A stretch of 41,847 bases of DNA. It comes from a virus. A model generated the notes under the pieces. It was not told the DNA's origin and ran no database searches. It saw only the letters and a program-made list of their open reading frames with translations. Shown here piece by piece: positions 3,800-41,847 of the stretch. Positions within the stretch are counted from its first letter, which is position 1; the number at the start of each line of letters is the position of its first letter. The stretch lies in the IMG/VR virus record IMGVR_UViG_3300031953_000042; one strand, written 5' to 3'. A program made the position numbers and the translations under genes.

Positions 3800-6048
3800 T
3801 AGTTGAGAGCCCTCATAACTGTGCCTTTCACTCCGGCGGGTGCCGCCTCAAACTTGTGAGCTCCTAGAACTACCTGTTCGCCGACGAACTGTTCGGCGTA
3901 CATGACGCCACCTTGCCACCGGGCGAGAACTGTCAGACCGTCGCGGGCTTCGATGCTTTCGTTGTCGATCGCGAAAGCAAGGGGCGAGCCCGGCTGACTG
4001 ATTCGGAGTTCGTCGGGCGTGAAGTCGTACCGTTGACGCAAGTCGGCGAGTTCCGACGTTGTGTCGCCTAGATCGCTCGCAACTTCCGCTATCTCGCCAA
4101 CGACAAGGCTGATCGATTCGTTGGCGCTAATGTCTAGGGCTCCACCGACGCCGGCCGCAATATGCCGCACTTCGATAGCGCCGGCCGTGATCGTGTTCGC
4201 CGTGACCGTGTTCGCGATAAGGTCGGCGCCGTCAATGCCGACGACTTCGACTTCGGTCGCTTCCGAGAGAGCCGACTCGCGGCCGAGCCGGTCGATTGCA
4301 GAGAGCCGAAACCACCAGACCGAACCGACGCCGAGCCCGATCAAACTCATTCGCTCGGAACCTTTGAACAGAGTCCCGACCAGTGAGTACTCTCCGTCTT
4401 CGGCCGTGCTCATGTAGGCGTTGATCTGTTGGAAGTGTGCCGGCGGGAACGTCACCGGGTCGGTGTCGAACGTTCCCGGCCACCTGAGCTCAACAACCCC
4501 GTTGTTTGATGTTCCTGTTGGTCGGGTCGGTGCTTCGAGCGCGAACGTTGGCTGCGCCATAGTGACCGCAACTTCCGCGCTGAACGCACCCCACACGCCG
4601 TTCTTCGATTGCGCTCGCACTTTGATAAGCCAAGCCGTTAGCGGGTTGAACGGGGAAGCGCTCGCCGCGTTCGTCGTCGTCGTTGTGAGTGCGTTCGACT
4701 CGGTGGCGCCGTCGTTGGGGCGTCCCCAAAGTTCATACGCCGCAACGTCAATCGCGACGTCGTTCGTTCCTTGTGTAACTTCCGTCCACGTCGCGCCGAT
4801 CTGTGCGAGCGGAATCCCGCCATCTGACCAGTACCCCGCCGAACCCACAACCAACCCGGCCGGCGCTTTCGGCGCTCGACGGTCTTCGGTCGATGGAACC
4901 CCGCCGGAACCCGAAGCGGAAGAGCCGCCGACAATGCCCGAGGTTCTCTTCGCGACCCGTGCGAGCAAGTCCAAGAAACGGTCGTTTAGAACAGGGGTGA
5001 CGGTGATCGCGCCGGAGTTGTTTTTCAGAACTACCAGTTCGGCAACGCGCACACGCTCCCAATCGCCGGCGAGCCAAAGCAGAACCCAATCGGCGGGGAA
5101 GTAGTGACGCCACGGCAACGACTCGGCGTTCTCGGCCTGTTCGCTCGCGGTGATCTGCCGGCGTACTTCCTTGCCGAGCGTTAGCCGCTGTTGTGCCAAT
5201 AGCTCGGCGGTGCCCTCGTCGCTCACTCCGCCCTGTTGGATAGCGACGCGCAACGCTCCCAGCTCGGTTACGGCGCCGACGTTCGTCACTGAGTGAGTAA
5301 ACCCGTCTTCACCGAAGAGAACGGCATCCGTCGCCAAGTCATCCAGCGATCGCTTTACGGGGGTTGTTGTCGCGAGCCGGCCGACACGGGTCGGGGCGTC
5401 GCCCGTGCTCCGGTCGGTGCCGTGCTCCGGGTTCCACAGGTGAATCGTGCGGCCGGCCGTGCTGAACTCGACAACACCCTGATCGATCAAGTTTCTGAGC
5501 ACAACCCACGCGCTAGTTCCGGGGGCGTACTGAATAGTGAGTTGTTCGGCCCAAGGGATGCCGGCGGAATCGTGCGTGGCCGTGAAGTCGTAAGAGAGTT
5601 CAACGCCCCAACCGAGCGCCTGTTCTTCGTCGATGATCGTTTTGAAGATCGCGCCGGGCGTCGAAGAGTTGAACGGGCGGTGGCCGTTCACAAGGTCGGC
5701 TAGATCGGGCGGGTTTTCTACGATCGCTTTCGCGAGCTTCCACGGGACAAGTTGCGCACCCTGTAGAGAGTGAGCGCCGGCGGGGTCGGTGTCGTCGTCG
5801 TTGTCGGTGTTCAGCAGAAAGCGACAATCGGGCGGCTCTACCCACGCGGCGTCGGCGTCGTTCCAATACTCGAGCGCGGCTTCAACGATCGTGGGCAACT
5901 TGCCGTAGATCGCTTGCGAAACCTGAGCGCGCAAAACCGACGGCGAACCGTTCGGGATAGTGGCGCCGAGCGTTTCCGTTGTGACCGTGCCGACACGATC
6001 GCCGGCGGGAACGTAGCGAACTAGGCGAAGATCAAACCTCGTAAGCAT
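3799..6048 (-). CDS. Minor tail protein (Tal-like baseplate/tip protein, probable FN3-like repeats)
   Basis: 749 aa, positioned directly after Dit. FN3-like segments (PKAPAGLVVGS...AYELWGRP, and PTRPTG...VELRWPG). ATG at 6048 with AAGGGG upstream. Confidence 0.7.
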   Translation of the reverse strand: MLTRFDLRLVRYVPAGDRVGTVTTETLGATIPNGSPSVLRAQVSQAIYGKLPTIVEAALEYWNDADAAWVEPPDCRFLLNTDNDDDTDPAGAHSLQGAQLVPWKLAKAIVENPPDLADLVNGHRPFNSSTPGAIFKTIIDEEQALGWGVELSYDFTATHDSAGIPWAEQLTIQYAPGTSAWVVLRNLIDQGVVEFSTAGRTIHLWNPEHGTDRSTGDAPTRVGRLATTTPVKRSLDDLATDAVLFGEDGFTHSVTNVGAVTELGALRVAIQQGGVSDEGTAELLAQQRLTLGKEVRRQITASEQAENAESLPWRHYFPADWVLLWLAGDWERVRVAELVVLKNNSGAITVTPVLNDRFLDLLARVAKRTSGIVGGSSASGSGGVPSTEDRRAPKAPAGLVVGSAGYWSDGGIPLAQIGATWTEVTQGTNDVAIDVAAYELWGRPNDGATESNALTTTTTNAASASPFNPLTAWLIKVRAQSKNGVWGAFSAEVAVTMAQPTFALEAPTRPTGTSNNGVVELRWPGTFDTDPVTFPPAHFQQINAYMSTAEDGEYSLVGTLFKGSERMSLIGLGVGSVWWFRLSAIDRLGRESALSEATEVEVVGIDGADLIANTVTANTITAGAIEVRHIAAGVGGALDISANESISLVVGEIAEVASDLGDTTSELADLRQRYDFTPDELRISQPGSPLAFAIDNESIEARDGLTVLARWQGGVMYAEQFVGEQVVLGAHKFEAAPAGVKGTVMRALN

Positions 6049-6826: not shown

Positions 6827-9746
6827 TGAGAACCGCCTCGGCGTACTGCGCGGCCGTGCGAGCGTCTTCGACCGGGTCTTTACTTACCGGGTTGTGCATG
6901 TGAATGCCTCCAAGGTTGATCGTCTTCCCGGTGCCCGTCGAGCCGCCGCCGTCAATGCCGCCGACCGCCATTGTGCGTGCTCCGGCCGGTATGTAAGTTC
7001 CCCCGAATATGCCCGCAACGGTTTGCATAATGGACTCCGAACGGGCTCGGCGATCAAGTGCAAACGGAACGTATGCCTCCCCGCCGGTCTCTTGCTCGGC
7101 CCAAACGGTGAGGTCGCCGGCTCGACGGATCTGCGCTTGCTGGCCCGCGTTCGACATAATGCCGCCGTCGGCCATGTGGCGAACGTAATCAATTCCGCCG
7201 TATGCGTGTTCAGTGAGTCCGCGCACGTTGCCGCCAACGTCAACGACGTACCGCGACCGTATGAACGTCGCGAGCCGCCCCTGCAGATCACTAATTGCAT
7301 TCTTGGCGCCGACCGTGTTCACGATCGCTTCGGTTTCCGCTTTACTCGGAATCTTGAGAATCTTGTCCGCAAGGTTCGCGGCTTCGTCGGCGTTGAGCCC
7401 GAAGTCTTGCGCCCGTTTGATTAGTGCATCCCGTGACGCTTCCAACGACGCCTGAAAGTTCTGGGTGTTCCCGTCGACCGCTAGTTGAGCTTCCGCGGCC
7501 GTCCACGCGTCGTCGGCGAGTTGCACAAGCATGCCCATGTTCGTTCGGCCGGCTTCGCTGTTCGTGTCGAGCGTGTTCGTGTAGCCGTCGACCTTGTCTT
7601 TGGCATTCTGAACGGCTAGATCGATTTCCGCGAGGGTGTCTTTGTAAGCAATGTTCGTGGTTATCGCGTCCTGATTCGCGCCGTTGGCTTCGTTCAGAGT
7701 GTCCAAGAGCGAGTCGAGGGAATCTTGAAGCGCCCCCACTTCGTCGGAAGCGACAACATAGGCGTCGGCCGCGCTTGTCGTGGCCTCTTCCGCGTCGCCC
7801 ATGCTGAGCTTTATCATTCGCTGAGCGTCGACCAGTTCGTTCCCGGTCGTCACGTTGATGCCCTGTGCGGTGGCTTGCTCGATAAGGGCGTCGCGGTACT
7901 CCGGCATGGTGTCGAGCAGTTGCCCTAACCGCTCGTCCGTCATGTCGGTTTCTTCGGCGATCAAACGGAACGCGCGCTGCGCCGCGGGGAGGTCGCTCGT
8001 AGACAGTTCGCCGAGTTGCTTCCCAATGTCTCGAAGTCCGTCGATGGTTGCGTTCTGAGCGGTGTCGTTGTTGAAGCGTGCCCACACGTTGTCGGCCTCT
8101 TCGCCGGCTAGCTGTAGGTCTTTGTCGAGATTCTTCAACGCGTCGGAAGTGTCGGCCCAGTACTTCGTATCTTTGCCCTGTAGTGCAACGGTGAATATCT
8201 CGGCCGCGGTCTTCGCGGTCGTGAGTGAGTTCGTGATTTCCGTCGTTGTGCTTTGCAAACTGTCGAGATACTTCGAGAGCAAGTTCACGCCGAGCACGGC
8301 CGCCGCGATCGCGATTCCCCAAGGCCCGGCTAAGAATGTGCCGACCTTGCCGAGTGCGGCCGCTGTTGCCGGCATGTCAGTTCGGAGAATAGCCATCGCC
8401 GCGCGGAACTCGATCGCTTTCGTGATTCCGACCGTGAACGCGCCGCCGGTGATCAAGAGCCCGGCCGTGAGTGCGGCACCGCCTAGGACAACCTGTTGCA
8501 TCCACGACGGGAGTTCCGCGAAGCCATCCACAAGTTCGGTCGTTGACTGAATCAGATCGCGAAGCACGCCGTTAGCTCCGGCGCCCGTGTTGATCAGTGC
8601 CGAGTCGAACGCGCCGCCGAGCTTTTCGAGGTCGCCCTGTAGGTTGTTCTGGTTTATGCCGGCGATCTTCGCGGCGTAGCCGGCCTCGTCAACGGCGCCA
8701 ATCCAACCCTGAATGCCCTCGGTGCCCTCGTTGTAAAGAACGTTCGCGGCTCGAATAGCATCCGACCCGAACATAATCCCGAGCGCGTAGTCTCGTTGCG
8801 CCTGAGTGGAATCAGCAAAGCCGGCTTTTAGTTGCCCGGCGAGTGAAGTCAAACCGACGAAGTTCCCCTGTGCGTCGTAAGCCTGAATGTTGAACTCCGC
8901 CATAAGGTCGCGCTGTTGCGACGTCGGCGTTGCCAAGTTGAGCAGCATCGTTCGGAACGATGTACCGGCATCCGAGCCAATCAGACCCGCGGAAGCGAAC
9001 GCGGCGAGCGTTCCCGTTGTCTCTTCAACGCTGAGACCCATCTGGGATGCGACGAGGCCCGATTGCTTTAGACCTTGCGAGAGCTCGGCGACTCCACCTT
9101 GTGCTTTACCAGCGGCCGCGGCGAGCAAGTCGGAAACGTGACCCGCTTCCGAGCCTTTCAGTTTGAACAGGTTTAGCGCGGTCGCGGTGATCGCCGCGGC
9201 GTCGGCCACTCCGATTTCACCGGCGGCCGCCAAGTTGAGAGAACCCGCGAGAGCTCCGCCGAGAATGTCAGCAGTTGAGACACCCGCCCGGCCGAGCTCT
9301 GCCACACCGTCGGCGGCTTCCTTGGCCGTGTATACGGTCTCGCCACCTAGCGAGATAGTGAGCTTGCGAATTGCGTCGAGCTCTTCACCGTAGGCACCGG
9401 TGACGGCGATAGATTTCGAGAGAGCCGCGTCGTATTCGGCATACTTCGCGACAGAGAGCCCGACAACGGCGGCGATCGCAATTCCGGCGATCGTCATTCC
9501 CGTGCCGATCGTGCGCATTGCCGCGAGTCCCCGGTCGCCCATTGCGAGCAGTTCCCGGCCGGCCGCGCCAACACTAGCGCCGAGCGTTAGCGAGCCGGCG
9601 CTTGCTCCGCCGAGCGACTTCGAGAGTGCGTCACCCTTACCGGCGGCACCCTGCAAAGCGGCGCCGCCGGCGTTGATGTCCTTTTCAAACTGTCCGCGAC
9701 CCTCAACGGTCATACGGGTGACAAGTGCGCCAAGATCAAACGACAC
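6819..9746 (-). CDS. Tape measure protein
   Basis: It is the largest gene, Ala/Gly-rich with TM-like segments, and follows the G/GT chaperones. Preferred start is GTG 9746 (GAAAGG 8 nt upstream); the track start is TTG 9782 and ATG 9713 is an alternative. Confidence 0.85.
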   Translation of the reverse strand: MSFDLGALVTRMTVEGRGQFEKDINAGGAALQGAAGKGDALSKSLGGASAGSLTLGASVGAAGRELLAMGDRGLAAMRTIGTGMTIAGIAIAAVVGLSVAKYAEYDAALSKSIAVTGAYGEELDAIRKLTISLGGETVYTAKEAADGVAELGRAGVSTADILGGALAGSLNLAAAGEIGVADAAAITATALNLFKLKGSEAGHVSDLLAAAAGKAQGGVAELSQGLKQSGLVASQMGLSVEETTGTLAAFASAGLIGSDAGTSFRTMLLNLATPTSQQRDLMAEFNIQAYDAQGNFVGLTSLAGQLKAGFADSTQAQRDYALGIMFGSDAIRAANVLYNEGTEGIQGWIGAVDEAGYAAKIAGINQNNLQGDLEKLGGAFDSALINTGAGANGVLRDLIQSTTELVDGFAELPSWMQQVVLGGAALTAGLLITGGAFTVGITKAIEFRAAMAILRTDMPATAAALGKVGTFLAGPWGIAIAAAVLGVNLLSKYLDSLQSTTTEITNSLTTAKTAAEIFTVALQGKDTKYWADTSDALKNLDKDLQLAGEEADNVWARFNNDTAQNATIDGLRDIGKQLGELSTSDLPAAQRAFRLIAEETDMTDERLGQLLDTMPEYRDALIEQATAQGINVTTGNELVDAQRMIKLSMGDAEEATTSAADAYVVASDEVGALQDSLDSLLDTLNEANGANQDAITTNIAYKDTLAEIDLAVQNAKDKVDGYTNTLDTNSEAGRTNMGMLVQLADDAWTAAEAQLAVDGNTQNFQASLEASRDALIKRAQDFGLNADEAANLADKILKIPSKAETEAIVNTVGAKNAISDLQGRLATFIRSRYVVDVGGNVRGLTEHAYGGIDYVRHMADGGIMSNAGQQAQIRRAGDLTVWAEQETGGEAYVPFALDRRARSESIMQTVAGIFGGTYIPAGARTMAVGGIDGGGSTGTGKTINLGGIHMHNPVSKDPVEDARTAAQYAEAVLNV

Positions 9747-10511
9747 GGGTCGCCGCCTTTCGTGTGAGGGTTTCGAGTTCAAACAGTGAGAAACAACGGG
9801 CGAGCAGATACTGCCACGTCATCTTTTCGGGCAAGTCTTCCCCGTCGAGCCGGAGAGAGTAAACGCGTTCCAAGTCGAGCCATACAGACCCGCCGTCGGT
9901 GTCGTTCATGCTCTCCAGCACAATCTTTAGCCGGTCGTTTCGGGTGAGGGTTCCGCCGGGTTCGGGAGGTCGCTCGGCTTCGTCGGGGTGCTCGGCTCGG
10001 CGGCGGGCTTGCTCTCGTTGGTCTCGGAACCACTTCGGGTAACGGTATCGGGGGAAGATTCCGCGATCGTCTGCCGTGCCGATTCCAAACGGTGCCTTAT
10101 CTGCGACAGTAAGGGAACCATACGAAGCTGGAACGCCGCTAGCGCTTTTTTTCGTGCGTCTTCGCCGCCTTGCGATCCCATTTCGTCGAGCTCGAGCAAC
10201 GCTTTTACCGCGTCGAGACCGCCGACCGATTGCCAGAAATAGGCACACTGGGCGAGCATTTCGCCCTCATGTTGGCTCAAAGTCTCGTCGGCTCGCTTGT
10301 AGTTCTCCAAGCCGAACGAATTGATAACGTCTTCGTTCTGTGCGCCCTCGGCGATCGGAAGACCCTCAACGGCGAACAGATAACGGGTCGACAACTCCCG
10401 GCCGGCTTTGGCGCTCATAGGCGAGATAAGGAACGGCGCGATTGGCTCTTCCCCGTCTTCGGTCTGAACGGTCAAAGCAAGCCGGCGCCCCTGTAGTTGT
10501 GCAGTGATCAT
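9736..10511 (-). CDS. Tail assembly chaperone, -1 frameshift fusion (GT-type); shift at 10146-10152
   Basis: ORF 9736-10248 lies in the -1 frame relative to 9927-10511. The predicted junction is ...EDARKK/SASGVPASYG... Confidence 0.7.
9927..10511 (-). CDS. Tail assembly chaperone (G-type, frame 0)
   Basis: Lies between the major tail and tape measure genes. It contains the slippery heptamer and is overlapped by a -1 frame ORF. Confidence 0.8.
   Translation of the reverse strand: MITAQLQGRRLALTVQTEDGEEPIAPFLISPMSAKAGRELSTRYLFAVEGLPIAEGAQNEDVINSFGLENYKRADETLSQHEGEMLAQCAYFWQSVGGLDAVKALLELDEMGSQGGEDARKKALAAFQLRMVPLLSQIRHRLESARQTIAESSPDTVTRSGSETNESKPAAEPSTPTKPSDLPNPAEPSPETTG
10146..10152 (-). 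promoter_or_regulatory. Programmed -1 ribosomal frameshift slippery heptamer A_AAA_AAA
   Basis: Seven consecutive T on the plus strand. On the minus strand the zero frame reads CGA AAA AAA GCG, which fits X_XXY_YYZ. Confidence 0.75.
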
Positions 10512-23189: not shown

Positions 23190-23861
23190 CTAAACGATCG
23201 GGCTCACGGCGCCATGCAGCGCGGCTTCGGTGGCGCGAAGCTCTTCCCGGCGAGCGGCTTCGTTCAGTGCGGAAGTGTTCGCCGGCGGGAACGCTTGCGT
23301 GAACATGGCGGCGGCTTCGTGCATCTTCGTAGGGAACCGGACGGGAACTTCGTCGAGCGTGCCGGGCCCGTGCGCTGTTCCGCCGCCGACGGTGTGAAAA
23401 CGCACCGTTTCGGGGTTGGTCTCGTCGAGAATGCCGGAGAGATACCCGCGGGCGTCGTCGAGTGCGGCACGGGTTCCGGCTTTGTCATGCTCACACGCGT
23501 TGACGTACTGCCGTTTGAGTATCAGCAACAGGCCGGCGAGCTCGGAGACCGATCGGTCGGCAATGAATTGATCAACGTCGGCGTGAGCGGCGTCGCGGAA
23601 CTTGCGGGCGTTCTCCACGTCTTCGGCCACGGTTGTTCCGAGACTCAAAGCAACGGGAATACCGCCATGCCCAACAGAGCGAGCGCGCACGTTACTAGAA
23701 GTGTCCACAGCATTCTCCACGTCATTGTTCGGTTCTGCCTTTCGTGCTCGGTTGTTGAGTTGGTCTTGTACGTCGTCGAGTGTGTTCCGTGCTGAGTTGA
23801 TAGCGTTCTGCAATTCGCCGAGCGCGATCAGTTCCGCAGCTTGTCCAAGTGTTACGGCCAT
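23190..23861 (-). CDS. Hypothetical protein
   Basis: 223-aa ORF with protein-like composition and an ATG start. Confidence 0.65.
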   Translation of the reverse strand: MAVTLGQAAELIALGELQNAINSARNTLDDVQDQLNNRARKAEPNNDVENAVDTSSNVRARSVGHGGIPVALSLGTTVAEDVENARKFRDAAHADVDQFIADRSVSELAGLLLILKRQYVNACEHDKAGTRAALDDARGYLSGILDETNPETVRFHTVGGGTAHGPGTLDEVPVRFPTKMHEAAAMFTQAFPPANTSALNEAARREELRATEAALHGAVSPIV

Positions 23862-23897
23862 TGTTTCGGTTCTTTCTACTAGGTGAGCGGTTAGGGG

Positions 23898-24599
23898 TTA
23901 GCCGGTGATCTTGATCGGCCAGTGTGTGTTCACGTCGGAGGCGTCTTTACCTGACCGGCGAAGATAGTCGGCGAATGACTCCGCTTGTGAGCGGGCCCAC
24001 TCGACTTGTGCGGCGTGCACTCCGTCGGGGTTGACCGAAGCGGCGAGCGCTAGATCGTCGAAGCGGCGAAGCATGGACTGCAGAACGCGGCCGGCGGCTA
24101 TGGAATCGGCGAGAGCTCCGTGGGCTTCACCCTCAAACTTCACCCCGTAGTGCTCGGCGGCGGCTACTAGGGTGCGCTTGCCCTTGCGGAAGCGGTCGAA
24201 TTGCTTGTCGAGTACCAGCGGGTCGAACACGTTCGGGCGGGGCATTAGCTCTTTGAGTTCTTTCCCGAAGTGGCGGCGGGTGCCGGCGTCGAGCATGGAC
24301 AGATCAAACGGGGCGTTATAGATCACGATCGGGAGATTGGCGCCGATCGCCGTCCGCAAGTGACCGACCATTTCGGCGATAGCTTCGCCGGGGACTTGGC
24401 CGAGTGCGGCCATTTCGTCGGTGATGCCGTGCACGGCGGTAGCTTCCGCGGGGATATGGATCTCCGGGTTCACTTTCCATTCGTGCCAATCCAACAACTC
24501 CCCGTCTTCGTCGAGCAGCGAGACCGCGCCGGAAACGATGCGGTCGTTCTCGGTGTCGACTCCGGTTGTTTCTAGGTCGAATGATGCGAGAGCAATCAT
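23898..24599 (-). CDS. DnaQ-like 3'-5' exonuclease (DEDDh family)
   Basis: Exo I FDLETTG, Exo II IYNAPFDLSML and Exo III HGALADSIAAGRV. Confidence 0.85.
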   Translation of the reverse strand: MIALASFDLETTGVDTENDRIVSGAVSLLDEDGELLDWHEWKVNPEIHIPAEATAVHGITDEMAALGQVPGEAIAEMVGHLRTAIGANLPIVIYNAPFDLSMLDAGTRRHFGKELKELMPRPNVFDPLVLDKQFDRFRKGKRTLVAAAEHYGVKFEGEAHGALADSIAAGRVLQSMLRRFDDLALAASVNPDGVHAAQVEWARSQAESFADYLRRSGKDASDVNTHWPIKITG

Positions 24600-26517: not shown

Positions 26518-26912
26518 AGAACACCGTCCCCGGTGACAACCACGGCGCCGTCGGGCATAAGCACGGTTTCAATGGTCATAGCGTCGAGCGGGTTCGCGCC
26601 GCCGTCGGAGAGCTCCCGCACGGTTTGGAGAATCCACGCCATGAGAGCCGTTTCGGGCCCGTGCTCGGCGATCGCTTCGGGTTTGATCGTGTGCACCGCG
26701 CGAACGACAAAGCCGGGGGCGGCGGTGCGGTCTTTGGTCTGCCCGAAAGAGCCTCGAGCAACGTCGGCGGGCTTCGGTGCCCCGTTGATCGTTCCTAAGT
26801 CGTAGGCGTCGCGGATAGCTTGCAACGCTTCGGCGCGGGTAATCTTCGCGATTCGTTGAACGTTGAGCAGCTTCGTTGCGATCTGTTCGAGTGCTTCGGT
26901 GGGTTCTGACAT
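26514..26912 (-). CDS. Hypothetical protein
   Basis: ATG at 26912 with GAAAGAG upstream; sequence begins MSEPTEALEQIATKLL. The track extension to 27140 is Pro/Ser-rich shadow sequence overlapping the next gene. Confidence 0.6.
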   Translation of the reverse strand: MSEPTEALEQIATKLLNVQRIAKITRAEALQAIRDAYDLGTINGAPKPADVARGSFGQTKDRTAAPGFVVRAVHTIKPEAIAEHGPETALMAWILQTVRELSDGGANPLDAMTIETVLMPDGAVVVTGDGVL

Positions 26913-29141: not shown

Positions 29142-29215
29142 GGGCGCACCCCGCTGTTCCGCGCACGGCGAACGGTGCGGGCAGTAGTCGGCGCGGTGTT
29201 GGTAGAATCGTTCAC
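29138..29215 (-). CDS. Candidate 25-aa leader ORF coupled to the downstream gene
   Basis: AGGAGG (29230-29225) lies 9 nt before GTG 29215. Its stop TGA overlaps GTG 29141 (GTGA). Confidence 0.3.
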   Translation of the reverse strand: MNDSTNTAPTTARTVRRARNSGVRP

Positions 29216-29300
29216 GCGGCCGCACCTCCTAACTAGGTGATCTGGCTGGAACGCGTCGGGCTCGTAACCCGGCGCGTTCGTTCGTTCTGAGAGCGTAACA

Positions 29301-29636
29301 CTATGCGAAGACATAATCGCCACTCGAGAGCAACAGAACGGGCAACCGATACGCCGGGTGGAAGTACGGCACAAGTTCCGGGTCGTCATAGCGGGAGAGT
29401 TTGACCCCCCGTTCGCGGGCGAGCTCGGCGAGGTCGGGGTCTGACTCGATAAGCCCGTTGCACGTCCAGCAGATCGCGCACGCGTTGGCGAGAGTGTTCG
29501 CCCCTTTGAAGCCGCCGGCGCCCCTGTTAGCGCGGTGATTGACCGTTGTCGCTTTCCGGTAACAGATCGGGCAAGTCTCGAAGTCTCGAAACAAAACGAT
29601 GGCTTTTTGCTCGGCGGTGAATCCGGTCGCGGCCAT
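29301..29636 (-). CDS. HNH endonuclease
   Basis: CPIC ... VNHRANRGAGG ... CAICWTCN fits the HNH/zinc pattern. Confidence 0.8.
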   Translation of the reverse strand: MAATGFTAEQKAIVLFRDFETCPICYRKATTVNHRANRGAGGFKGANTLANACAICWTCNGLIESDPDLAELARERGVKLSRYDDPELVPYFHPAYRLPVLLLSSGDYVFA

Positions 29637-33624: not shown

Positions 33625-33692
33625 TAGTGTGCCTCGTTCTTTTCTCTTGAGTTGTTTATCTGGGATTGTGTGCGGCCGCCCGATTGGGTTCG

Positions 33693-33745
33693 AGCGGCCG
33701 CGGTGTTGCTTAGGCTACTTGATCAGCAGCGGCCGCGGTGTTGCT
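33693..33745. repeat. 18-bp direct repeat AGCGGCCGCGGTGTTGCT (33693-33710 and 33728-33745) straddling the exonuclease stop codon
   Basis: Both copies were read directly. A further GCGGCCGC palindrome at 33672-33679 can pair with the one at 33694-33701. Confidence 0.8.
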
Positions 33746-35844: not shown

Positions 35845-37130
35845 GCCTTGCTCTTCCCGTTATCAGCGACGACGCGGCCCTCTTCGATCACGAAGCCAAC
35901 GTCGCCCGACTCATCGACAACTTCGACCCAAACTTGCGCCTCGTGCCGGGTAGCAATTGCGCGAATCGTTGCCATGTGCGCCGTGTCAATCAGCGAGCCC
36001 TCATTGATTCGGAAGACCCTCAACTCCGGGTTAGCCGCGGCCGCGACACCCATCGCGGTTTCCCATTGCTCGGCCGTGGAAGCATCCGACAAGGGGAGCC
36101 CCTTGTACGTCACGCCGTCTTCGTCGAAGCCGAGACCGTCGACCGGGAACTTCGCCGCGGCGAGACCGTCGGCGCGTTTCTTTTCGAGCGCTTCAATCTT
36201 GGCCGTGAGCCCGTCGCGCTTCGCTTTGGTCTCTTCGAGAGTCCGCGCCGTGTTCTGGCGCTGTTGCTCGGCACGAACCGCAGCGTTGATCGCGTCGGCG
36301 TTGTTGATCTTGCTCCGTGCCGCGTCGATTTCTTCCGCCGGCACCGGTGCCATTTCGGAAAGACGCCCGCGGATTTCTTCGGCTCGGTCGCGCGTTTTGT
36401 TGAGGCGCTCTTCCAAGTCGTCGGCGGTCGCCTGTAGGTGCGCGAGCTCTTCCGTTGTCTCTTCGTGCTGGCGAGCACAGTCGCGCAACGTTTCGAGCTC
36501 ATCCATTAGTTCAGCCGATGAAACTTCGGCCGCGGGAAGATCGGCCGCCGGCTGTTGGAAGCCCGCCAACTGTCCCTCGAGTTGTTTCACCACGCGCCCT
36601 ACGTCGGTGCGGGTGCTGTAGTGCTCGGCGCGCTCGGCGTCGAGTTGCACCGGGTCGAATCCAAGATCGACAAGCCCGACGAGCTCGGCTTGCTGATCTT
36701 TCGGAGACTTCGCGAGAAACTTCGCCGGGTCGAGAGCCAACACCGAATAGAACCGGTCGAGAACCTCTTGCGGCCGTGACAAGTGCGAATAGATCGCGTT
36801 CCCGTCGTCGTCGGTACGCTCCGAGCGTTGGCGCACCGTGATCTTCGTCACAATCTCTTTACTGCCGGGGGTCTTCCGTTCCCACGTTCGAGTTGCTTCA
36901 ATGTCGCCGAACTCAACAATGACGGCCGCGCGCTCTTCACCGTCCCGAATCGGGCGGCTAGTTTTCTTAGCCTTACCGCCGGCGATCGCCGCCTCGATCG
37001 CGTCGAGAATGGCCGACTTGCCGGCACCGTTCGCGCCGCTAATCTGAACAATCGGGTCGTTCGGGTCGGGGCTAATCTCAATCGCCCTAATCGTTTTGAA
37101 GTTCTCGGCCTGAAACTTTGCAATTATCAT
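35841..37130 (-). CDS. SMC/RecF/SbcC-like AAA ATPase with central coiled coil
   Basis: N-terminus FKTIRAIEI...ISGANGAGKSAILDAIE (Walker A), a long charged helical middle, and a C-terminal VWVEVVDE Walker B-like motif. Confidence 0.75.
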   Translation of the reverse strand: MIIAKFQAENFKTIRAIEISPDPNDPIVQISGANGAGKSAILDAIEAAIAGGKAKKTSRPIRDGEERAAVIVEFGDIEATRTWERKTPGSKEIVTKITVRQRSERTDDDGNAIYSHLSRPQEVLDRFYSVLALDPAKFLAKSPKDQQAELVGLVDLGFDPVQLDAERAEHYSTRTDVGRVVKQLEGQLAGFQQPAADLPAAEVSSAELMDELETLRDCARQHEETTEELAHLQATADDLEERLNKTRDRAEEIRGRLSEMAPVPAEEIDAARSKINNADAINAAVRAEQQRQNTARTLEETKAKRDGLTAKIEALEKKRADGLAAAKFPVDGLGFDEDGVTYKGLPLSDASTAEQWETAMGVAAAANPELRVFRINEGSLIDTAHMATIRAIATRHEAQVWVEVVDESGDVGFVIEEGRVVADNGKSKA

Positions 37131-37157
37131 CTGGGTTTTTCTTTCTTGTGAGGGTGC

Positions 37158-37183
37158 CGGGCGGCGAGAGTAGCCGCCGCCCG
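37158..37183 (-). terminator. 9-bp GC hairpin in a 71-bp gap (U-tract-less terminator/attenuator candidate)
   Basis: CGGGCGGCG (37158-37166) pairs with CGCCGCCCG (37175-37183). Confidence 0.35.
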
Positions 37184-37201
37184 ACAGTAATTGGGGTGGG
37201 G

Positions 37202-37549
37202 TTAGTTGCCGTCGCCTAAGTCGTCGATACCCGTCAGGGGGGTGTCGTCGTTGACGTCGTCTTCGTGCGGGTTCGGGCGGGTTTTCTGATTCGTGCGGCG
37301 AGTGAACTCCGAGTCGATCAGCTTCTCGATTTCGTCGCGACCCTTGCCGCTCGGAACTTCAATGTGCACAATCTGGAGCGTTGCTTGCTCGTCGCCCGTT
37401 GCTACGTCGGTGCGAATGTCCTTTACTGCCAGTTCAACAACCGCGTAACGACGTTCACGCGGAAGCGCAATCACTTGCCCGTGTAGGGCGATCAGTGCGT
37501 TGTGCTCGGTGGCGTCGGGGGTCTTCGTGCTCAATTTCGGTTTAGTCAT
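37202..37549 (-). CDS. Hypothetical protein with acidic C-terminal tail
   Basis: 115 aa. The tail DDVNDDTPLTGIDDLGDGN is reminiscent of SSB-type acidic tips, but I cannot see an OB-fold motif. Confidence 0.55.
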   Translation of the reverse strand: MTKPKLSTKTPDATEHNALIALHGQVIALPRERRYAVVELAVKDIRTDVATGDEQATLQIVHIEVPSGKGRDEIEKLIDSEFTRRTNQKTRPNPHEDDVNDDTPLTGIDDLGDGN

Positions 37550-38186
37550 TGTTCCTGTTCTTTCTCTGGGTGTTCGAGGGCCATTCGACGGCGTTCAATG
37601 CCGACGGTGTGACCCTCTGTGGGCTTGGCTCTCTGGGAGAGCCGAGCGCACGCGCCACCATAGCGGCGAGCGCGAGCGCGTCCGCGGTGTTGTCGTCGGT
37701 GACGAAAACGCCGGGGAACATTCGTGGGATAGCGAGCAGAATCGCGGCTTTGGAGTCTTGCCCCTTTGGAGTGCCGCCGCTTCCGGTCGCGTATTTCTTC
37801 ATGGTTGTTGTGCTGATTTCGATAACGATCCCGTGGTTGAAGAGTGCGTTAGTGACCAACCAGAACAACCCGGCACGATCGAGAACGCCTTGCCCGCCAT
37901 TCTTCGCGAGCAGCAACGGAAGCTCGATCGCAAAGACCGGGGCGTCGTCAACTTCGGGGTCGTAGCCGTCGAGAGCGGCCGCGACAATCCGCCCGGCGAT
38001 ACGTCGCAAACGGTTGCGGCGATCAAGTAGCCCGGCGTAAGACTTGCCGTCTTTCACCGCGGTTTTCTCCGGTGCGCTTCGCACGTTCCTAAGCAAGTGC
38101 GGGTGGCCCTCTAAGTCGTCCCCGCGAAGCACGGCCACGCCGGTATTCGTGAGAGACAAGTCGAGCCCAACAAAGTGATAAGGCAT
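37542..38186 (-). CDS. RuvC-like Holliday junction resolvase
   Basis: ATG 38186 (TAATG junction). FVGLDLSLTNTG, FAIELP and TDDNTADALALA supply the RuvC acidic residues. Confidence 0.75.
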   Translation of the reverse strand: MPYHFVGLDLSLTNTGVAVLRGDDLEGHPHLLRNVRSAPEKTAVKDGKSYAGLLDRRNRLRRIAGRIVAAALDGYDPEVDDAPVFAIELPLLLAKNGGQGVLDRAGLFWLVTNALFNHGIVIEISTTTMKKYATGSGGTPKGQDSKAAILLAIPRMFPGVFVTDDNTADALALAAMVARALGSPREPSPQRVTPSALNAVEWPSNTQRKNRNND

Positions 38187-38386
38187 TATTTCTCCGGTTG
38201 TTTCTGTTCGTGGAACACGGCGGTGATCGCACAAACGACAAGAGCGACGGCGAGCAGACTCGCCCCGTTGAACTTGTCGGATACTCCGAGAGCGATCGCG
38301 CCGGCGGCGGCGGCTTGTGCGAGAAAGATCACCGACCAACGGGGCGGCTTGCGGTCTTTCTTGCCGGATACAATTGTGCGTGTCAA
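38186..38386 (-). CDS. Small membrane protein (2 TM, 66 aa)
   Basis: TTG start with GAGG 7 nt upstream. Hydrophobic stretches WSVIFLAQAAAAGAIALGV and LLAVALVVCAITAVF. Confidence 0.5.
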   Translation of the reverse strand: MTRTIVSGKKDRKPPRWSVIFLAQAAAAGAIALGVSDKFNGASLLAVALVVCAITAVFHEQKQPEK

Positions 38387-38408
38387 AGTCGTGCCTCGAT
38401 TCTTGGCC

Positions 38409-38449
38409 GAGTGGGTGCCGATCTGGGTTCGGTGCCCACTCTTTTTTTT
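38409..38449 (+). terminator. Rho-independent terminator oriented for PLUS-strand transcription, inside the minus-strand operon
   Basis: A 12-bp stem (38409-38420 / 38430-38441) is followed by T8 (38442-38449). Two stem positions are G-U wobbles only in plus-strand RNA; they are A-C mismatches in minus-strand RNA. Confidence 0.65.
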
Positions 38450-38452
38450 GGG

Positions 38453-38683
38453 TTATCTTCCGAAGTTGCGGGTGATTTCTGCGGGGTCTTCGAGCCCGAA
38501 GAGCTCGGCGAGCAGTTCGAGTTCGTGCAGGGTGAACTCCCGCCGGCCGTTCATGCGTGCCGATACTGCCCCCAATCCGCGCTCGATCGTTTCGGCGATC
38601 TGTTGGTTGCTTACGTTGTTTTGAGCGGCGAGAGCGCGCACGTTGCCCGCTACTTTCTCCGCGAAGCTGAGTTGAGTTGCCAT
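38453..38683 (-). CDS. XRE/Cro-like helix-turn-helix regulator
   Basis: ATG 38683 with GAAAGG upstream. NVSNQQIAETIERGLGAVSARMNGRREFTLHEL is an XRE-type HTH. It is the first gene of the leftward operon at a divergent junction. Confidence 0.75.
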   Translation of the reverse strand: MATQLSFAEKVAGNVRALAAQNNVSNQQIAETIERGLGAVSARMNGRREFTLHELELLAELFGLEDPAEITRNFGR

Positions 38684-38823
38684 GTTTCTACCTTTCGTTA
38701 TTAGAGACCGTAACACAAACACGCCGCGCCGCGACCTGTTTAGGTTGTTTTCCGTTCACTTTGTGCCGTATAGTGGACTGCATCGGGTTCCTCCCGGTAC
38801 TACCCAGAACAGATTGGCACAAC
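38684..38823. promoter_or_regulatory. Divergent intergenic control region; candidate plus-strand promoter TTGTTT-18-TATAGT
   Basis: This is the only strand switch of the divergent type. TTGTTT lies at 38745-38750 and TATAGT at 38769-38774. I could not identify a convincing minus-strand promoter. Confidence 0.4.
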
Positions 38824-39288
38824 ATGAACAACGCAACCGCACAGATCGAACAGGGCACCCGCGTAAAGATCACCAGCAACCGCTCCGCTTCGCGTTTCTT
38901 TGTTCTGGGCTACGAGGGCGAATATGTTTACCTCGTTCAGACCAGCGCGAACTCAACTAGCGCCGCCGACATTTCAATGGTCAATCTGGATGTCGCTCTT
39001 GCTTCCGACATTGAAGCCGACCCCAAAGGCAAGGCCCAACTGATCAGCGCTTGGAAGCGTTTCTGGGAGCTCCGCGTTGCCGCGCAAGCCGTGAACACCC
39101 CGGCACCCGCCGAAGTTGAGCCGCTTCCCGCGTCGTCGTTCGCCCGTGTTGTTGCCGCCGCCGGTTGCTCGACTTGCGACGCACCGGCCGGCGAGAACTG
39201 CGCCCGAATCACCGAAGACGGAACCCGCCGTCCGCTCGGTCGGAATCACCGCAGCCGCGTTCTCGAAGCCAACGCCGCAACCCTCTAA
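38824..39288 (+). CDS. Hypothetical protein (N-terminal beta-rich module, C-terminal Cys/His knuckle)
   Basis: ATG 38824. C-terminus CSTCDAPAGENCARITEDGTRRPLGRNHRSR. Confidence 0.65.
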   Translation: MNNATAQIEQGTRVKITSNRSASRFFVLGYEGEYVYLVQTSANSTSAADISMVNLDVALASDIEADPKGKAQLISAWKRFWELRVAAQAVNTPAPAEVEPLPASSFARVVAAAGCSTCDAPAGENCARITEDGTRRPLGRNHRSRVLEANAATL

Positions 39289-39301
39289 CCCAACTTTTAC
39301 C

Positions 39302-39324
39302 GGGGGCGGCATCCCGCCGCCCCC
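39302..39324 (+). promoter_or_regulatory. Intercistronic stem-loop H1 (9-bp stem, loop ATCCC)
   Basis: GGGGGCGGC ATCCC GCCGCCCCC. Confidence 0.7.
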
Positions 39325-39345
39325 CCTGAACCGATCGGAAAGACC

Positions 39346-39633
39346 ATGACGAAAGCCGCCGAGACACAAGCCGCACGGGTCGAACGCCGCCTAATGGCGA
39401 TTTACCCGGCCGCTGATGGCTACGACGTGCAAGTTCACGTCGAGGGGTACTCTCTCGCGGCGAGCGTGTGGCGCGACAACAACCGGACGGTCGGATACGT
39501 CGGGGACAAGTGGACAGTTGCCGCGGCACTCGAAACGCTCACCCCGCTGTTCGACAAGCTAGACCGTGACGAAGACGGGAACCCGCCCCGTGACGAAGAC
39601 GGAAACCCGCTAGACCTGAGCCAGTACGCCTAA
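39346..39633 (+). CDS. Hypothetical protein with C-terminal DEDGNP tandem repeat
   Basis: 95 aa. Contains RDEDGNPPRDEDGNPLD. Confidence 0.65.
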   Translation: MTKAAETQAARVERRLMAIYPAADGYDVQVHVEGYSLAASVWRDNNRTVGYVGDKWTVAAALETLTPLFDKLDRDEDGNPPRDEDGNPLDLSQYA

Positions 39634-39640
39634 CCCCTAC

Positions 39641-39665
39641 GGGCTCGGCATCCCGCCGAGCTCCC
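39641..39665 (+). promoter_or_regulatory. Intercistronic stem-loop H2 (loop ATCCC, stem with one bulge)
   Basis: GGGCTCGGC ATCCC GCCGAGCTCCC. Confidence 0.65.
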
Positions 39666-39686
39666 AACGAATAGAAAGAGAAAACA

Positions 39687-40157
39687 ATGCCTACAGTTCG
39701 CAAGCAATACGGCCCCACCGTGAAGTGCACTTTCACCGGAGACCTAGCGACAACGCACCGCCCCGGTAACTCTGGCCCGTTCTTTTGCATGAATTGCGGG
39801 GAGACCGATCACCCCGAGGTTGACTACGCGGAACACTTCGCGGGGAAAGCCGCCGAAGCGGAAGCCGCGAAGCCGACCGAAGAGACACCGACCGGCGCCG
39901 CCCTGTCACCGTTCTACACAAACATCCCGACGCCGGTCAAAGACGGGGACACGGTTACTCTTACGTTTGACGAACACCACGGCCGCGAGTATGTCGTCGG
40001 CGATATGAGTCGCAACGGCAAGGCGGCTTTCTTGTACGGAATGCCCGACGGGAAGCCGGCGCCGCTCTCAACTCCCGGCGTGCTCCGCTTCGGCCCGTTC
40101 AACGTGAGCGAGTTCCGAGCAACCCGCAAGACGCACGCCGCACGCTCCCCGAAATAA
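39687..40157 (+). CDS. Hypothetical protein (N-terminal Cys knuckle, C-terminal beta-rich module)
   Basis: 156 aa. Contains KCTFTG...FFCMNCGETDH. Confidence 0.65.
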   Translation: MPTVRKQYGPTVKCTFTGDLATTHRPGNSGPFFCMNCGETDHPEVDYAEHFAGKAAEAEAAKPTEETPTGAALSPFYTNIPTPVKDGDTVTLTFDEHHGREYVVGDMSRNGKAAFLYGMPDGKPAPLSTPGVLRFGPFNVSEFRATRKTHAARSPK

Positions 40158-40172
40158 CCCACAACCCCAACC

Positions 40173-40199
40173 GCGGCGCCGGCATCCCGCCGGCGCCGC
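40173..40199 (+). promoter_or_regulatory. Intercistronic stem-loop H3 (11-bp perfect stem, loop ATCCC)
   Basis: GCGGCGCCGGC ATCCC GCCGGCGCCGC. Confidence 0.7.
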
Positions 40200-40219
40200 C
40201 CCAACAGATCGGAAAGACA

Positions 40220-40645
40220 ATGCCCAAACTCCACGAAGCTCTCGCACAGTTCGCAACCGTCGCCCGTGCCATGCCCGGCGCCGACCCCATCATTCGCCCA
40301 ATGGCCGCGCTCGACTGTTCACAAGTCGAAGCGTTCACCGGGGTTCTCCGCGCGATCGGCGAAGTTGAGCTCGCCGACTCCCTCTTGGCCGAGCACGAAG
40401 CGCACGACCGGAAGTACGGCAACCGCGCACACAACGACGAACTGCCAACGACACCCGTCGCCCCGCCGTTGCCGTTCCTGATTGACGAACGAATCGCAAC
40501 GATTCGCCCCGCGGTTCTCTCCACCGGTGCCGAGCTCGGATCCATTCGCCTAGTCGAGTCCACAACCGGCACACTCCACAAGCAAGTGCTGAACGTCTTC
40601 GGAGAATGGGAAGACGCGCTCGAGCTCGCACCCGTAGCCGGCTAG
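40220..40645 (+). CDS. Hypothetical protein
   Basis: 141 aa. It is the last gene of the plus-strand cassette. Confidence 0.65.
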   Translation: MPKLHEALAQFATVARAMPGADPIIRPMAALDCSQVEAFTGVLRAIGEVELADSLLAEHEAHDRKYGNRAHNDELPTTPVAPPLPFLIDERIATIRPAVLSTGAELGSIRLVESTTGTLHKQVLNVFGEWEDALELAPVAG

Positions 40646-40658
40646 CCCGCAACGAACG

Positions 40659-40696
40659 AAAGCCCCGCACCGGGTAGGGTGCGGGGCTTTCTTTGT
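40659..40696. terminator. Bidirectional intrinsic terminator (T1) between convergent genes
   Basis: AAAGCCCCGCAC CGGGTAGG GTGCGGGGCTTT. It is followed by TCTTTG on the plus strand and TTTCGTTCGTT on the minus strand. Confidence 0.75.
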
Positions 40697-40702
40697 GGGC
40701 TC

Positions 40703-41101
40703 TTACTCGGCCGGGTGTCGCGACTTGCGCGGCTCAACGTCGAAGATCACCTGAGAGCGGCGCCGGAGTCGAGCAACCAACGAAGCGTCTAGGCGGGTGA
40801 TCGTGACGGCGACGCCGAAGTACACGGCGAAGCGGAACGCCGGCCGCCATTCGAGCACGTCGGGCGGGGAGACATACCAAGGGGCGCTTCCGCCGACGAA
40901 GATCGCGACGAAGATCAGCGCCACCACTCCGAGCAACGAGAGCGTGAACCAGAACACAAGCTGCCCGGCCGCGGTGTCATACCAGCGGAACCGGAAGCCG
41001 TAGAGAGCAACCCACACGATAAGGGCGCCGGATATGTAGAGAACGGTCATGTTCGCCACAACCCACAAGGCGGGGTTGATGTAGTCGGTTAGTGCGTCCA
41101 A
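40703..41101 (-). CDS. Membrane protein (about 4 TM)
   Basis: TTG 41101 with GGAGGG 8 nt upstream. Hydrophobic stretches: ALWVVANMTVLYISGALIVWVALYG, LVFWFTLSLLGVVALIFVAIFVG and FRFAVYFGVAVTI. Confidence 0.6.
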   Translation of the reverse strand: MDALTDYINPALWVVANMTVLYISGALIVWVALYGFRFRWYDTAAGQLVFWFTLSLLGVVALIFVAIFVGGSAPWYVSPPDVLEWRPAFRFAVYFGVAVTITRLDASLVARLRRRSQVIFDVEPRKSRHPAE

Positions 41102-41331
41102 GGGTTGCGCCCTCCATAGTTTCGGCGGGGGGTTAGTGCTGTTTCCAACTCGGCGCCGAATGAATCGGGCACGGCGGTAATTCTAAGACGTGCGAAGACC
41201 GGTGCCAGTTGCCGGCGCGTTGTCTGTATCTGGCCGAGTTCCGCGACGGCCGCGGCTTGTGCTGAACGTGCGGCGGCTATCCCGGCGCGCACGTCGGCCG
41301 GAGTGTCGGCCGGTAGTTCTTCGAGACTCAC
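41089..41331 (-). CDS. Hypothetical protein
   Basis: 80 aa. GTG start in a GTGA overlap with the upstream gene. Confidence 0.5.
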   Translation of the reverse strand: MSLEELPADTPADVRAGIAAARSAQAAAVAELGQIQTTRRQLAPVFARLRITAVPDSFGAELETALTPRRNYGGRNPWTH

Positions 41332-41684
41332 GATTGTGCCCCCTTGGTCGTGTCACCATTGTGCCCCCGTTGGGGGGTTGCGGGGCGTTGCTCGAACAAC
41401 ATTTCGATATATCTGTTGGCATCCACAGACTCTTTGAGGGTTGCCGCGGTCTCCGTGTGAACGGCCGCGAGAGCAACGTGGGCGGCTTTCCAGTCGTCGG
41501 CGAGGGTCTTGTAAACCGAAAGCGTGTTGTCTTTCTCGGTGAGCAACTTCGTTACTTGCTCGGCCGTGTACCAGTGACCGGAAGTCTGCCGGCGAATCAG
41601 CCAGATTAGAACGCTGATCAGCGCACCGACTGAGCTCGCCGCAATGCCAAGCGATACGGGCCACGGCACTATCTGTTCCAACAT
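41328..41684 (-). CDS. Signal-anchor membrane protein with helical ectodomain
   Basis: ATG 41684 with AAAGGGGGAG upstream. Sequence: MLEQIVPWPVSLGIAASSVGALISVLIWLI followed by a charged helical region. Confidence 0.6.
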   Translation of the reverse strand: MLEQIVPWPVSLGIAASSVGALISVLIWLIRRQTSGHWYTAEQVTKLLTEKDNTLSVYKTLADDWKAAHVALAAVHTETAATLKESVDANRYIEMLFEQRPATPQRGHNGDTTKGAQS

Positions 41685-41701
41685 GCTCCCCCTTTCATAA
41701 A

Positions 41702-41734
41702 GCGAGCCCCGCACCGGGTAGGGGCGGGGCTCGC
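41702..41734 (-). terminator. Hairpin T2 downstream of the holin-like gene, near-identical to T1
   Basis: GCGAGCCCCGC ACCGGGTAGGG GCGGGGCTCGC. On the minus strand it is followed by TTTAT. It shares AGCCCCGCACCGGGTAGGG and GCGGGGCT with T1. Confidence 0.55.
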
Positions 41735-41847
41735 GGCCGTGCTTAGTTTATTCGCCGGCCGGTTTGATCGGTGCGAGCCATGAAAGCCACGGCGTGTTGC
41801 TAATCAACGCATTGACGGCGGGTTGCGCCATAATCTGCGCGAGCAGT
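41721..41847. repeat. Terminal overlap copy 2. It duplicates the 3' end of the holin-like gene (28-127) and half of a hairpin.
   Basis: Exact duplicate of 1-127. It contains no independent genes. Confidence 0.95.

Follow-up and report, generated by a model that had tools for sequence, protein, structure and literature searches.

A small cis-antisense RNA gene, similar in kind to sar of phage P22, probably lies at positions 38369-38449 of the viral DNA analysed here (IMG/VR record IMGVR_UViG_3300031953_000042; its full 41.8-kb length is called the window below). It would be read from the plus strand, against an early operon carried on the minus strand, and would block translation of the first gene after a cro-type gene and of the block of genes coupled to it. 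The cro-type gene encodes a Cro-like helix-turn-helix (HTH) protein of 76 amino acids (aa); the target gene encodes a 66-aa protein with two transmembrane segments (2-TM protein). Comparison with related loci indicates that RNA structure has been selected on the antisense strand. Less firmly, the layout also appears to be kept in three cultured phages, REQ3, GMA1 and SV1. As judged from sequence, the antisense RNA would be a regulator of a known kind, but the family that it forms would be new and unannotated.

The gap between the HTH gene and the 66-aa open reading frame (ORF) is 66 nucleotides (nt) long and contains a hairpin (38409-38441) that reads GAGTGGGTGCCGA-TCTGGGT-TCGGTGCCCACTC on the plus strand. 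Of its 13 pairs, 11 are Watson-Crick and two are adjacent G-U pairs that exist on the plus strand only; eight pairs are G-C. The T8 directly following is the longest A/T homopolymer of the window, where the sole other run of at least six is a T7 at 10146. The plus strand thus presents the G+C-rich stem-loop and adjoining U-tract of an intrinsic terminator. Plus-strand RNA from 38375 to 38455 folds at -32.6 kcal/mol (z = -3.7), and none of 200 shuffled sequences does as well. The minus-strand RNA folds at -21.5 kcal/mol, with both G-U positions open as A-C, and has no U-tract after the stem, reading GGCCAAGAAUCGAGG there. A first-pass annotation of the window had proposed a strong plus-strand terminator at 38409-38449. 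Its position, orientation and T8 stand, and the stem is corrected from 12 to 13 base pairs (bp), the closing A-T pair being included. The same annotation had described the two non-Watson-Crick positions as G-U in plus-strand RNA only and A-C in the minus transcript, which folding of both strands confirmed. It had also stated that the minus strand lacks a U-tract past the stem, and reading of the sequence agrees.

A candidate -10 hexamer, TACAAT, stands ahead of this hairpin, within the 5' part of the target gene. We infer from the sequence that an RNA is produced from it and acts as a repressor; as to its exact ends, the 5' end would fall at 38380-38382 (6-8 nt past the -10) and the 3' end inside the T-tract. 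The predicted RNA is complementary to the leader, the Shine-Dalgarno sequence (SD), the start codon and the first two codons of the post-cro gene. The TGCCTCGATTC stretch, which complements the SD and start, is nearly invariant in alignment A2 of related loci. The earlier coordinates for TACAAT (38369-38374) and for the complements of the TTG start and of GAGG were all correct. Mycobacterial promoters are often found without a conserved -35. The preferred -10 of SigA in mycobacteria is TANNNT (PMC6448022). For these two reasons the poor -35 here is no objection to an antisense promoter. An E-value scan of 37000-41847 gave no Rfam family match at the element.

The arrangement was also sought with a strict module scan, in which TAnnnT had to be followed by 30-44 nt that include an anti-SD, by a stem of 9 bp or more and by a T-rich tail. 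It gave two matches on the plus strand of the window and none on the minus strand. The overall count was five against none, all antisense to operons (two in the window, two in REQ3 and one in GMA1), with no match on the sense strands. Operator-like repeats common to the antisense promoter and the divergent control region of the phage were looked for, and none was found. A palindrome over the -10, ACAATTGT, was considered as an operator; it is unique in the window, but 26 of 100 shuffled sequences also contain a match, and it was set aside. A small 5' hairpin showing the anti-SD in its loop was seen in the fold and likewise dropped, since by inspection it is not conserved in relatives.

The plus strand carries another candidate antisense module of the same build at 29203-29290, flanked by an HNH-like ORF (29636..29301) and the minus-strand gene after it. 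Its parts are a -10 TAGAAT (29203-29208), the anti-SD CCTCC, a hairpin of 12 bp (29249-29279) and, as a tail, GTTCGTTCT. It covers the SD AGGAGG and the GTG start of that next gene, and one sense A-C is a plus-strand G-U.

Table 1 Predicted antisense element, neighbouring genes and analogous modules (coordinates of the window unless a phage is named)
Feature	Position	Strand	Remarks
Predicted -10 hexamer TACAAT	38369..38374	plus	within codons 5-6 (ATT GTA) of the 66-aa ORF
Predicted antisense RNA, ~65-70 nt	38380..38449	plus	from promoter and terminator geometry
Anti-SD/start segment	38384..38397	plus	CCTC 38394-38397 against the SD; CAA 38384-38386 against the TTG start
Terminator hairpin	38409..38441	plus	13 bp, 7-nt loop UCUGGGU
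T8 tract (U-tract)	38442..38449	plus	directly after the stem
Cro-like 76-aa HTH gene	38453..38683	minus	first gene of the long operon; stop codon 3 nt from the A8/T8 tract
Target gene, 66-aa 2-TM protein	38186..38386	minus	TTG start (38386-38384), SD GAGG 7 nt upstream; heads a translationally coupled block
RuvC-like resolvase	38186..37542	minus	phrog_159, E = 4e-29; coupled to the target ORF
115-aa ORF	37549..37202	minus	8-nt overlap with the RuvC-like gene; coupled downstream
Analogous module, REQ3 (L112)	3484-3560	antisense	hairpin and TAnnnT in codons 4-6
Analogous module, GMA1 (L113)	2804-2880	antisense	hairpin and TAnnnT in codons 4-6
Analogous module, SV1 (L114)	3848-3925	antisense	hairpin and TAnnnT in codons 4-6

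The RuvC-like protein encoded after the target gene has 24 relatives in public assemblies, at 50-67% identity. Genomic context was retrieved for twelve loci (L001, L002, L005-L010, L066 and L108-L110); L111, whose upstream region is missing, was left out of the comparison. One of them, L066 (62%), was added by a search of metagenome_contigs, in which it was the one usable close locus, the other matches being too short or too distant. The alignment search of genome_contigs and viral_contigs returned only relatives at most 50% identical, and viral_contigs yielded none by the RuvC-like protein alone. A pattern scan of more distant loci gave no convincing case of the module, the few extra matches looking spurious, and tblastn found no relatives of the TM protein among phages.

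The order of elements is the same in all twelve loci: the stop of the HTH gene, a short A-rich spacer, the hairpin and a CA-rich spacer, after which come the SD GAAyCGAGGCA and the start codon of a small ORF. The stop before the hairpin belongs either to the HTH gene or to a small gene behind it, and the small ORF starts with TTG, GTG or ATG in the relatives. In ten loci the product of this ORF can be aligned (A4) as a conserved 2-TM protein that has FNG(L/A)S at its centre, and we therefore take the ORF as a real gene. L001 may differ: the gene caller placed no ORF at the site, and the TM-like ORF seems to begin further downstream. L002 has seven genes in succession with 4-nt overlaps.

The stems share almost no sequence across lineages, yet they pair. 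Because the MAFFT alignments A2 and A3 misalign variable stems, a covariance-model alignment (A6) and strand-symmetric scripts were used. Changes on both sides were found for 13 of 13 pairs, with a covariation score of 0.919 against 0.228 in shuffles (0 of 500 reach 0.919), in an alignment that takes in three non-orthologous hairpins. When partners were slid as a control, pairing fell from 97% to 41-53%. The check suggested in the first-pass annotation, conservation of the hairpin with compensatory changes, thus came out positive.

Covarying arms of an inverted repeat would also be expected of a site bound by a dimeric protein, so that the hairpin might be a DNA-level palindrome, for protein binding or recombination, rather than a structure of the RNA. 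The imperfect pairs, by their strand polarity, speak otherwise. In a count that treats G-T and A-C mismatches alike on both strands, the non-Watson-Crick positions of the post-cro hairpins comprise 12 antisense G-U and 2 sense G-U, both of the latter at outermost, doubtful pairs. Such asymmetry is meaningless for duplex DNA. Moreover, the relatives have related HTH proteins but arms without any sequence in common, and no copy of the arms occurs in the divergent control region. We give the palindrome reading hardly any credence.

Control hairpins of the same phages, located before the SD of RecT and of an SbcC-like gene, show 1 antisense G-U against 6 sense G-U (Fisher p = 0.003). As these controls, in the same operons, are opposite, a composition or mutational bias is not the cause. 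For the orthologues only, standard pairs amount to 97.9% on the antisense strand versus 84.4% on the sense strand. In L007 and L009 the sense hairpin is destroyed, with 3 A-C in 11 pairs, while the antisense hairpin keeps 11 of 11. With each strand folded independently, all 13 loci favour the antisense fold, the margin being 1.5-11.9 kcal/mol; the background strand difference across the whole window is 0.67 +/- 3.96. The nine bases past the stem are 49% T on the antisense side versus 11% T on the sense side, and the tails of the relatives are merely U-rich, for instance AUUCUUACU and GCUUCUAUU.

These observations bear on a second explanation, in which the hairpin works in the sense early mRNA: it would stabilise the message, be a place of RNase processing or pausing, or serve as an attenuator that lacks a U-tract and resembles lambda tR1, its plus-strand features being incidental. 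A hairpin with sense G-U precedes every gene block of these phages (37155-37186 and 33672-33701 in the window, and their counterparts), a site right after cro recalls tR1, and the loop has a CA-rich motif common to other sense-strand leaders. However, in 8 of 11 lineages the sense fold is broken up by the non-Watson-Crick positions, which leave no fold at all in L007 and L009, the sense side has no T-rich tail (11% T), and the conserved antisense TAnnnT would be left unexplained. We consider a sense-strand role unlikely for the post-cro hairpin; it probably applies to the other intergenic hairpins.

Those other hairpins have features of their own. The operon is split into translationally coupled blocks, each placed after a hairpin without a U-tract and a strong SD GAAyCGAGGCA. 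Block hairpins are found at 37155-37186 and 33672-33701 on the minus strand of the window and in L005 (~5080), L008 (~7640) and L109 (7864-7902). Because their G-U pairs are on the sense strand, they are probably attenuators, stabilisers or processing sites on the mRNA. The loop GCUACUCU is common to block hairpins of the window and of L005.

The candidate antisense promoter is conserved with the hairpin. In the twelve related loci and the window, exactly one TAnnnT per locus occurs in the 47 nt before the anti-SD, always 34-40 nt ahead of the hairpin, and six hexamers are represented (TACAAT, TAGACT, TAGCAT, TACGAT, TACGCT and TAGGGT). In most loci the hexamer lies on codons 5-6 of the small ORF, where the residues vary (Ile-Val, Ser-Leu, Met-Leu, Ser-Val). 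Codon 6 is GTA or CTA in most loci; these account for 7% of the Val codons and 10% of the Leu codons of the phage, where NTA codons are 2% of all codons. L066 and L001 keep TAnnnT though it is shifted out of the ORF frame. Varying residues, rare codons and the shifted frame together argue that TAnnnT is constrained at the nucleotide level. With a start 6-8 nt past the hexamer, the predicted RNAs would be 68-87 nt long in 12 lineages.

Antisense initiation at TANNNT sites is pervasive in high-GC actinobacterial genomes, and the terminator could therefore be an insulator only, keeping spurious antisense transcription off the Cro-like gene and the divergent promoters, with a product devoid of regulatory role. 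Such an insulator would explain the polarity of the terminator equally well. What it does not need is a promoter held at a fixed 34-40 nt, against codon preference, in 12 lineages and in REQ3, GMA1 and SV1, nor a transcript spanning exactly the SD and start codon. We judge an insulator-only function improbable. An antisense RNA with its own promoter and terminator over the SD and start, as first annotated, is favoured by the polarity of the hairpins, the antisense-only tails and the kept TAnnnT.

REQ3, GMA1 and SV1 are isolated temperate phages in which a similar arrangement follows the Cro-like genes and faces unrelated target genes. In REQ3, the hairpin GCCCGUCCCG-GUGCAA-CGGGGCGGGC, followed by UUUUAC, is antisense to the early operon (L112 3509-3484) and ranks first among the terminator-like sites over 7 kb; codons 4-6 of gp08 contain TATTCT. 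Covariance model R1 misses this hairpin, and the analogue came from sequence reading and a terminator scan. A further module match occurs in REQ3 at 10292-10326. GMA1 has a longer hairpin followed by U5, and also TATTCT. SV1 has a hairpin of ~14 bp and TACCCT, with a weak tail of UUU only. Each of the three shows one sense A-C that is an antisense G-U, and their antisense folds are more stable by 12-17 kcal/mol. All three modules are on the minus strand of the phage records, at 3484-3560 of NC_016654 for REQ3 (host Rhodococcus equi), 26803-26880 for GMA1 (Gordonia malaquae) and about 23847-23925 for SV1 (Streptomyces venezuelae). The facing genes are annotated as 'endonuclease' (REQ3), anti-repressor Ant (GMA1) and hypothetical protein (SV1), none of them a membrane protein.

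The nature of these facing genes matters for a further reading, a type I toxin-antitoxin pair, in which the 66-aa 2-TM protein would be a membrane toxin and the 5'-overlapping antisense RNA its antitoxin, as with SymR. The target is indeed small and hydrophobic, and the RNA covers its SD and start codon. Yet the ORF has no promoter of its own, being the second cistron of the main operon and coupled to the RuvC-like gene by TAATG. It belongs to a conserved 2-TM family with the FNG(L/A)S motif, not to single-TM peptides, it has no toxin match in Pfam or PHROGs, and in REQ3, GMA1 and SV1 the module faces non-membrane genes. We find a toxin-antitoxin pair quite unlikely.

The position of the antisense promoter, inside the 5' end of the post-cro gene and pointing back through cro, matches that of lambda PRE. 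It might thus be an establishment promoter, some of whose transcripts would pass the hairpin, run antisense through the Cro-like gene and then continue in sense into 38824-40645; the imperfect U-tracts of the relatives would allow for this. The 13-bp stem and U8 of the window should terminate efficiently, however, the hairpin appears selected to fold on that very transcript, and a search for an activator site found none. A PRE-like promoter therefore seems very unlikely to us.

Several points weigh against an antisense regulator. The RNA is predicted from sequence, and its candidate promoter consists of a -10 hexamer without a -35. Covariation was counted on a structure-fitted alignment, and the module scan is biased by design to the antisense strand, which is T-richer and on which the required anti-SD lies. 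The loci are phylogenetically related, so that the counts overstate independence, the number of lineages being roughly 8-10. A perfect U-tract exists in the window only; the relatives have 2-5 T in the first 9 nt, and termination there may be inefficient. Finally, the conserved loop UGGGU (sense ACCCA) may reflect a CA-rich leader motif found upstream of other genes and not antisense recognition.

We propose the following mechanism for the antisense RNA. The -10-only promoter TACAAT would fire against the early operon, with a start near 38381; transcription would cross the complement of the TTG start and GAGG SD and end at the hairpin and U8 in the post-cro gap. The resulting RNA of ~68 nt, fully complementary to the initiation region of the post-cro gene, would pair with the early mRNA and occlude its ribosome-binding site, and the duplex would probably be a substrate of RNase III. 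The stop of the 66-aa ORF shares 1 nt with the RuvC-like start (TAATG), and this ORF is the sole gene of its block with a free-standing SD. Since the genes overlap and the block has that one free-standing SD, one occluded ribosome-binding site should lower the whole coupled block. The 2-TM protein would thus be reduced, and translational coupling would extend the effect to the RuvC-like resolvase and to the ORF after it; the Cro-like cistron would stay unaffected. The antisense and early promoters point at each other, and strong early transcription should therefore hamper the former. By analogy with known convergent-promoter systems, the antisense RNA would have its greatest effect when early transcription is weak and so set a threshold on delayed-early expression.

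A CCCAACC heptamer recurs in L002, L003, L007, L009, L108 and other loci, with 28 copies on the sense strand versus 4 on the other. Most copies belong to 5' leaders, a short way before an SD or start codon, and they are frequently placed in hairpin loops. In the clade of L002, L007, L009 and L108 the predicted antisense RNA has the loop GGGUUGGG, to which the heptamer is complementary; the heptamer could be a leader motif or mark targets in trans.

A broader proposal is that the antisense RNA is a general 'post-cro gate' of a wide actinobacterial siphovirus lineage, from the uncultured clade to SV1/Picard, REQ3 and GMA1, and that it may act in trans as well. In the trans variant, a G-rich loop (UGGGU in the window, GGGUUGGG in the clade) would kiss CCCAACC-type leaders and throttle several coupled early blocks in hosts without Hfq. 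This extension is doubtful. If the antisense RNA is real, a large and poorly studied phage lineage would gate delayed-early entry post-transcriptionally and not by antitermination. Antisense RNAs at phage switches, such as OOP and sar, are textbook cases in enterobacterial phages, and the literature searched contained no description of antisense RNAs in actinobacteriophages. Three cultured temperate phages with a similar layout make the idea directly testable. The element of ~80 bp, made of promoter, anti-SD and terminator, would also be a compact repressor module, reusable in high-GC hosts, which lack Hfq.

The window is an essentially complete siphovirus genome with 62% G+C. It encodes a terminase, portal, major head protein, tape measure, tail proteins, a RecT/YqaJ pair, a DNA methylase and a holin-like protein. 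No tRNA genes were found in the window, and a search of its ORFs in Pfam and PHROGs showed no recognisable integrase. Streptomyces phages SV1 and Picard, Rhodococcus phage REQ3 and Gordonia phage GMA1 have major head proteins that share 60-63% identity with that of the window, from which we deduce an actinobacterial host. No DNA match to 37500-39500, which includes the control region, was found among deposited phages by megablast and blastn against INPHARED. Nearly all genes are on the minus strand, as one long operon beginning at 38683. Its first product, the 76-aa HTH protein, matches phrog_4583 'transcriptional repressor' (E = 1e-9), with Pfam HTH_31 and HTH_3 just under the curated cut-offs.

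A divergent control region (38684-38823) separates this operon from four plus-strand genes (38824-40645). These have no assigned function, one of them giving a weak match to a phage zinc finger, unlike the divergent arm of REQ3, GMA1 and SV1, which carries an integrase and a repressor. TATAGT at ~38770 is the likely -10 of the plus-strand operon. The leader of that operon contains a 14-nt inverted repeat (38754-38767 and 38816-38829, 86% complementary, 48 nt apart), whose distal arm includes the ATG at 38824; it may be a structure of the 5' untranslated region or an operator pair. A perfect 14-bp hairpin at 40658-40691, between the last plus-strand gene (end 40645) and the minus-strand holin-like gene (end 40703), has T-rich tails on both strands and is probably a bidirectional terminator. 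It has a counterpart in L007 (1470-1515), and an 11-bp hairpin at 41702-41734 is similar to it. The T7 at 10146-10152 (plus strand; A7 on the coding strand) falls where ORFs 9927..10511 and 9736..10248 of the minus strand overlap, shortly upstream of the tape-measure gene, and looks like the slippery site of a tail-assembly-chaperone programmed frameshift.

Several known systems resemble the element in part. Lambda OOP acts via duplex formation and RNase III. In being short, in having a promoter and an intrinsic terminator of its own and in lying close to cro-cII, this phage antisense RNA resembles the one predicted here. It overlaps the 3' end of cII, whereas here the SD, the start codon and the 5' leader are covered, and the likeness to OOP (listed in PMC5415839) drawn in the first-pass annotation fails in this detail. 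The symE/symR type I pair shares a cis-encoded RNA over the SD and start of a small ORF (PMC5415839). The target here differs in being operon-embedded, coupled and endowed with two TM segments, and it is replaced by unrelated genes in related phages. The type I likeness, also suggested at first, is consequently less likely, the target being operon-coupled and the module facing non-membrane genes in the cultured relatives. An RNA-based prophage replication origin (PMC7157519) was considered and rejected, as the noncoding RNA there adjoins parABS. The lambda tR1/nutR region also lies directly downstream of a cro-type gene, and the present element, like it, plausibly gates delayed-early genes. 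However, tR1 is a sense-strand Rho-dependent terminator overcome by N, while here the terminator is on the antisense strand and the control proposed is post-transcriptional.

The parallel with P22 sar, already drawn in the first-pass annotation, fits closely. Both would be short cis-antisense RNAs: Liao et al. are said to have put sar, in 1987, at ~68-69 nt, and the RNA predicted here has ~68 nt. From its start at the head of ant, the sar RNA extends across the gap between arc and ant, and its base-pairing keeps Ant from being translated (PMC13397905). The phage is unrelated to P22, its element has no sequence or Rfam relationship to sar, and the host is an actinobacterium and not an enterobacterium. 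The target also differs, being a 2-TM protein that heads the main early operon by the cro-type switch, whereas sar is in the immI region, and here the terminator stem and U-tract fill the whole intercistronic gap. The two layouts nevertheless agree in that the RNA starts in the 5' end of a gene placed after a small DNA-binding repressor gene and runs back over the SD, and in GMA1 the gene facing the analogous module is itself annotated as the anti-repressor Ant.

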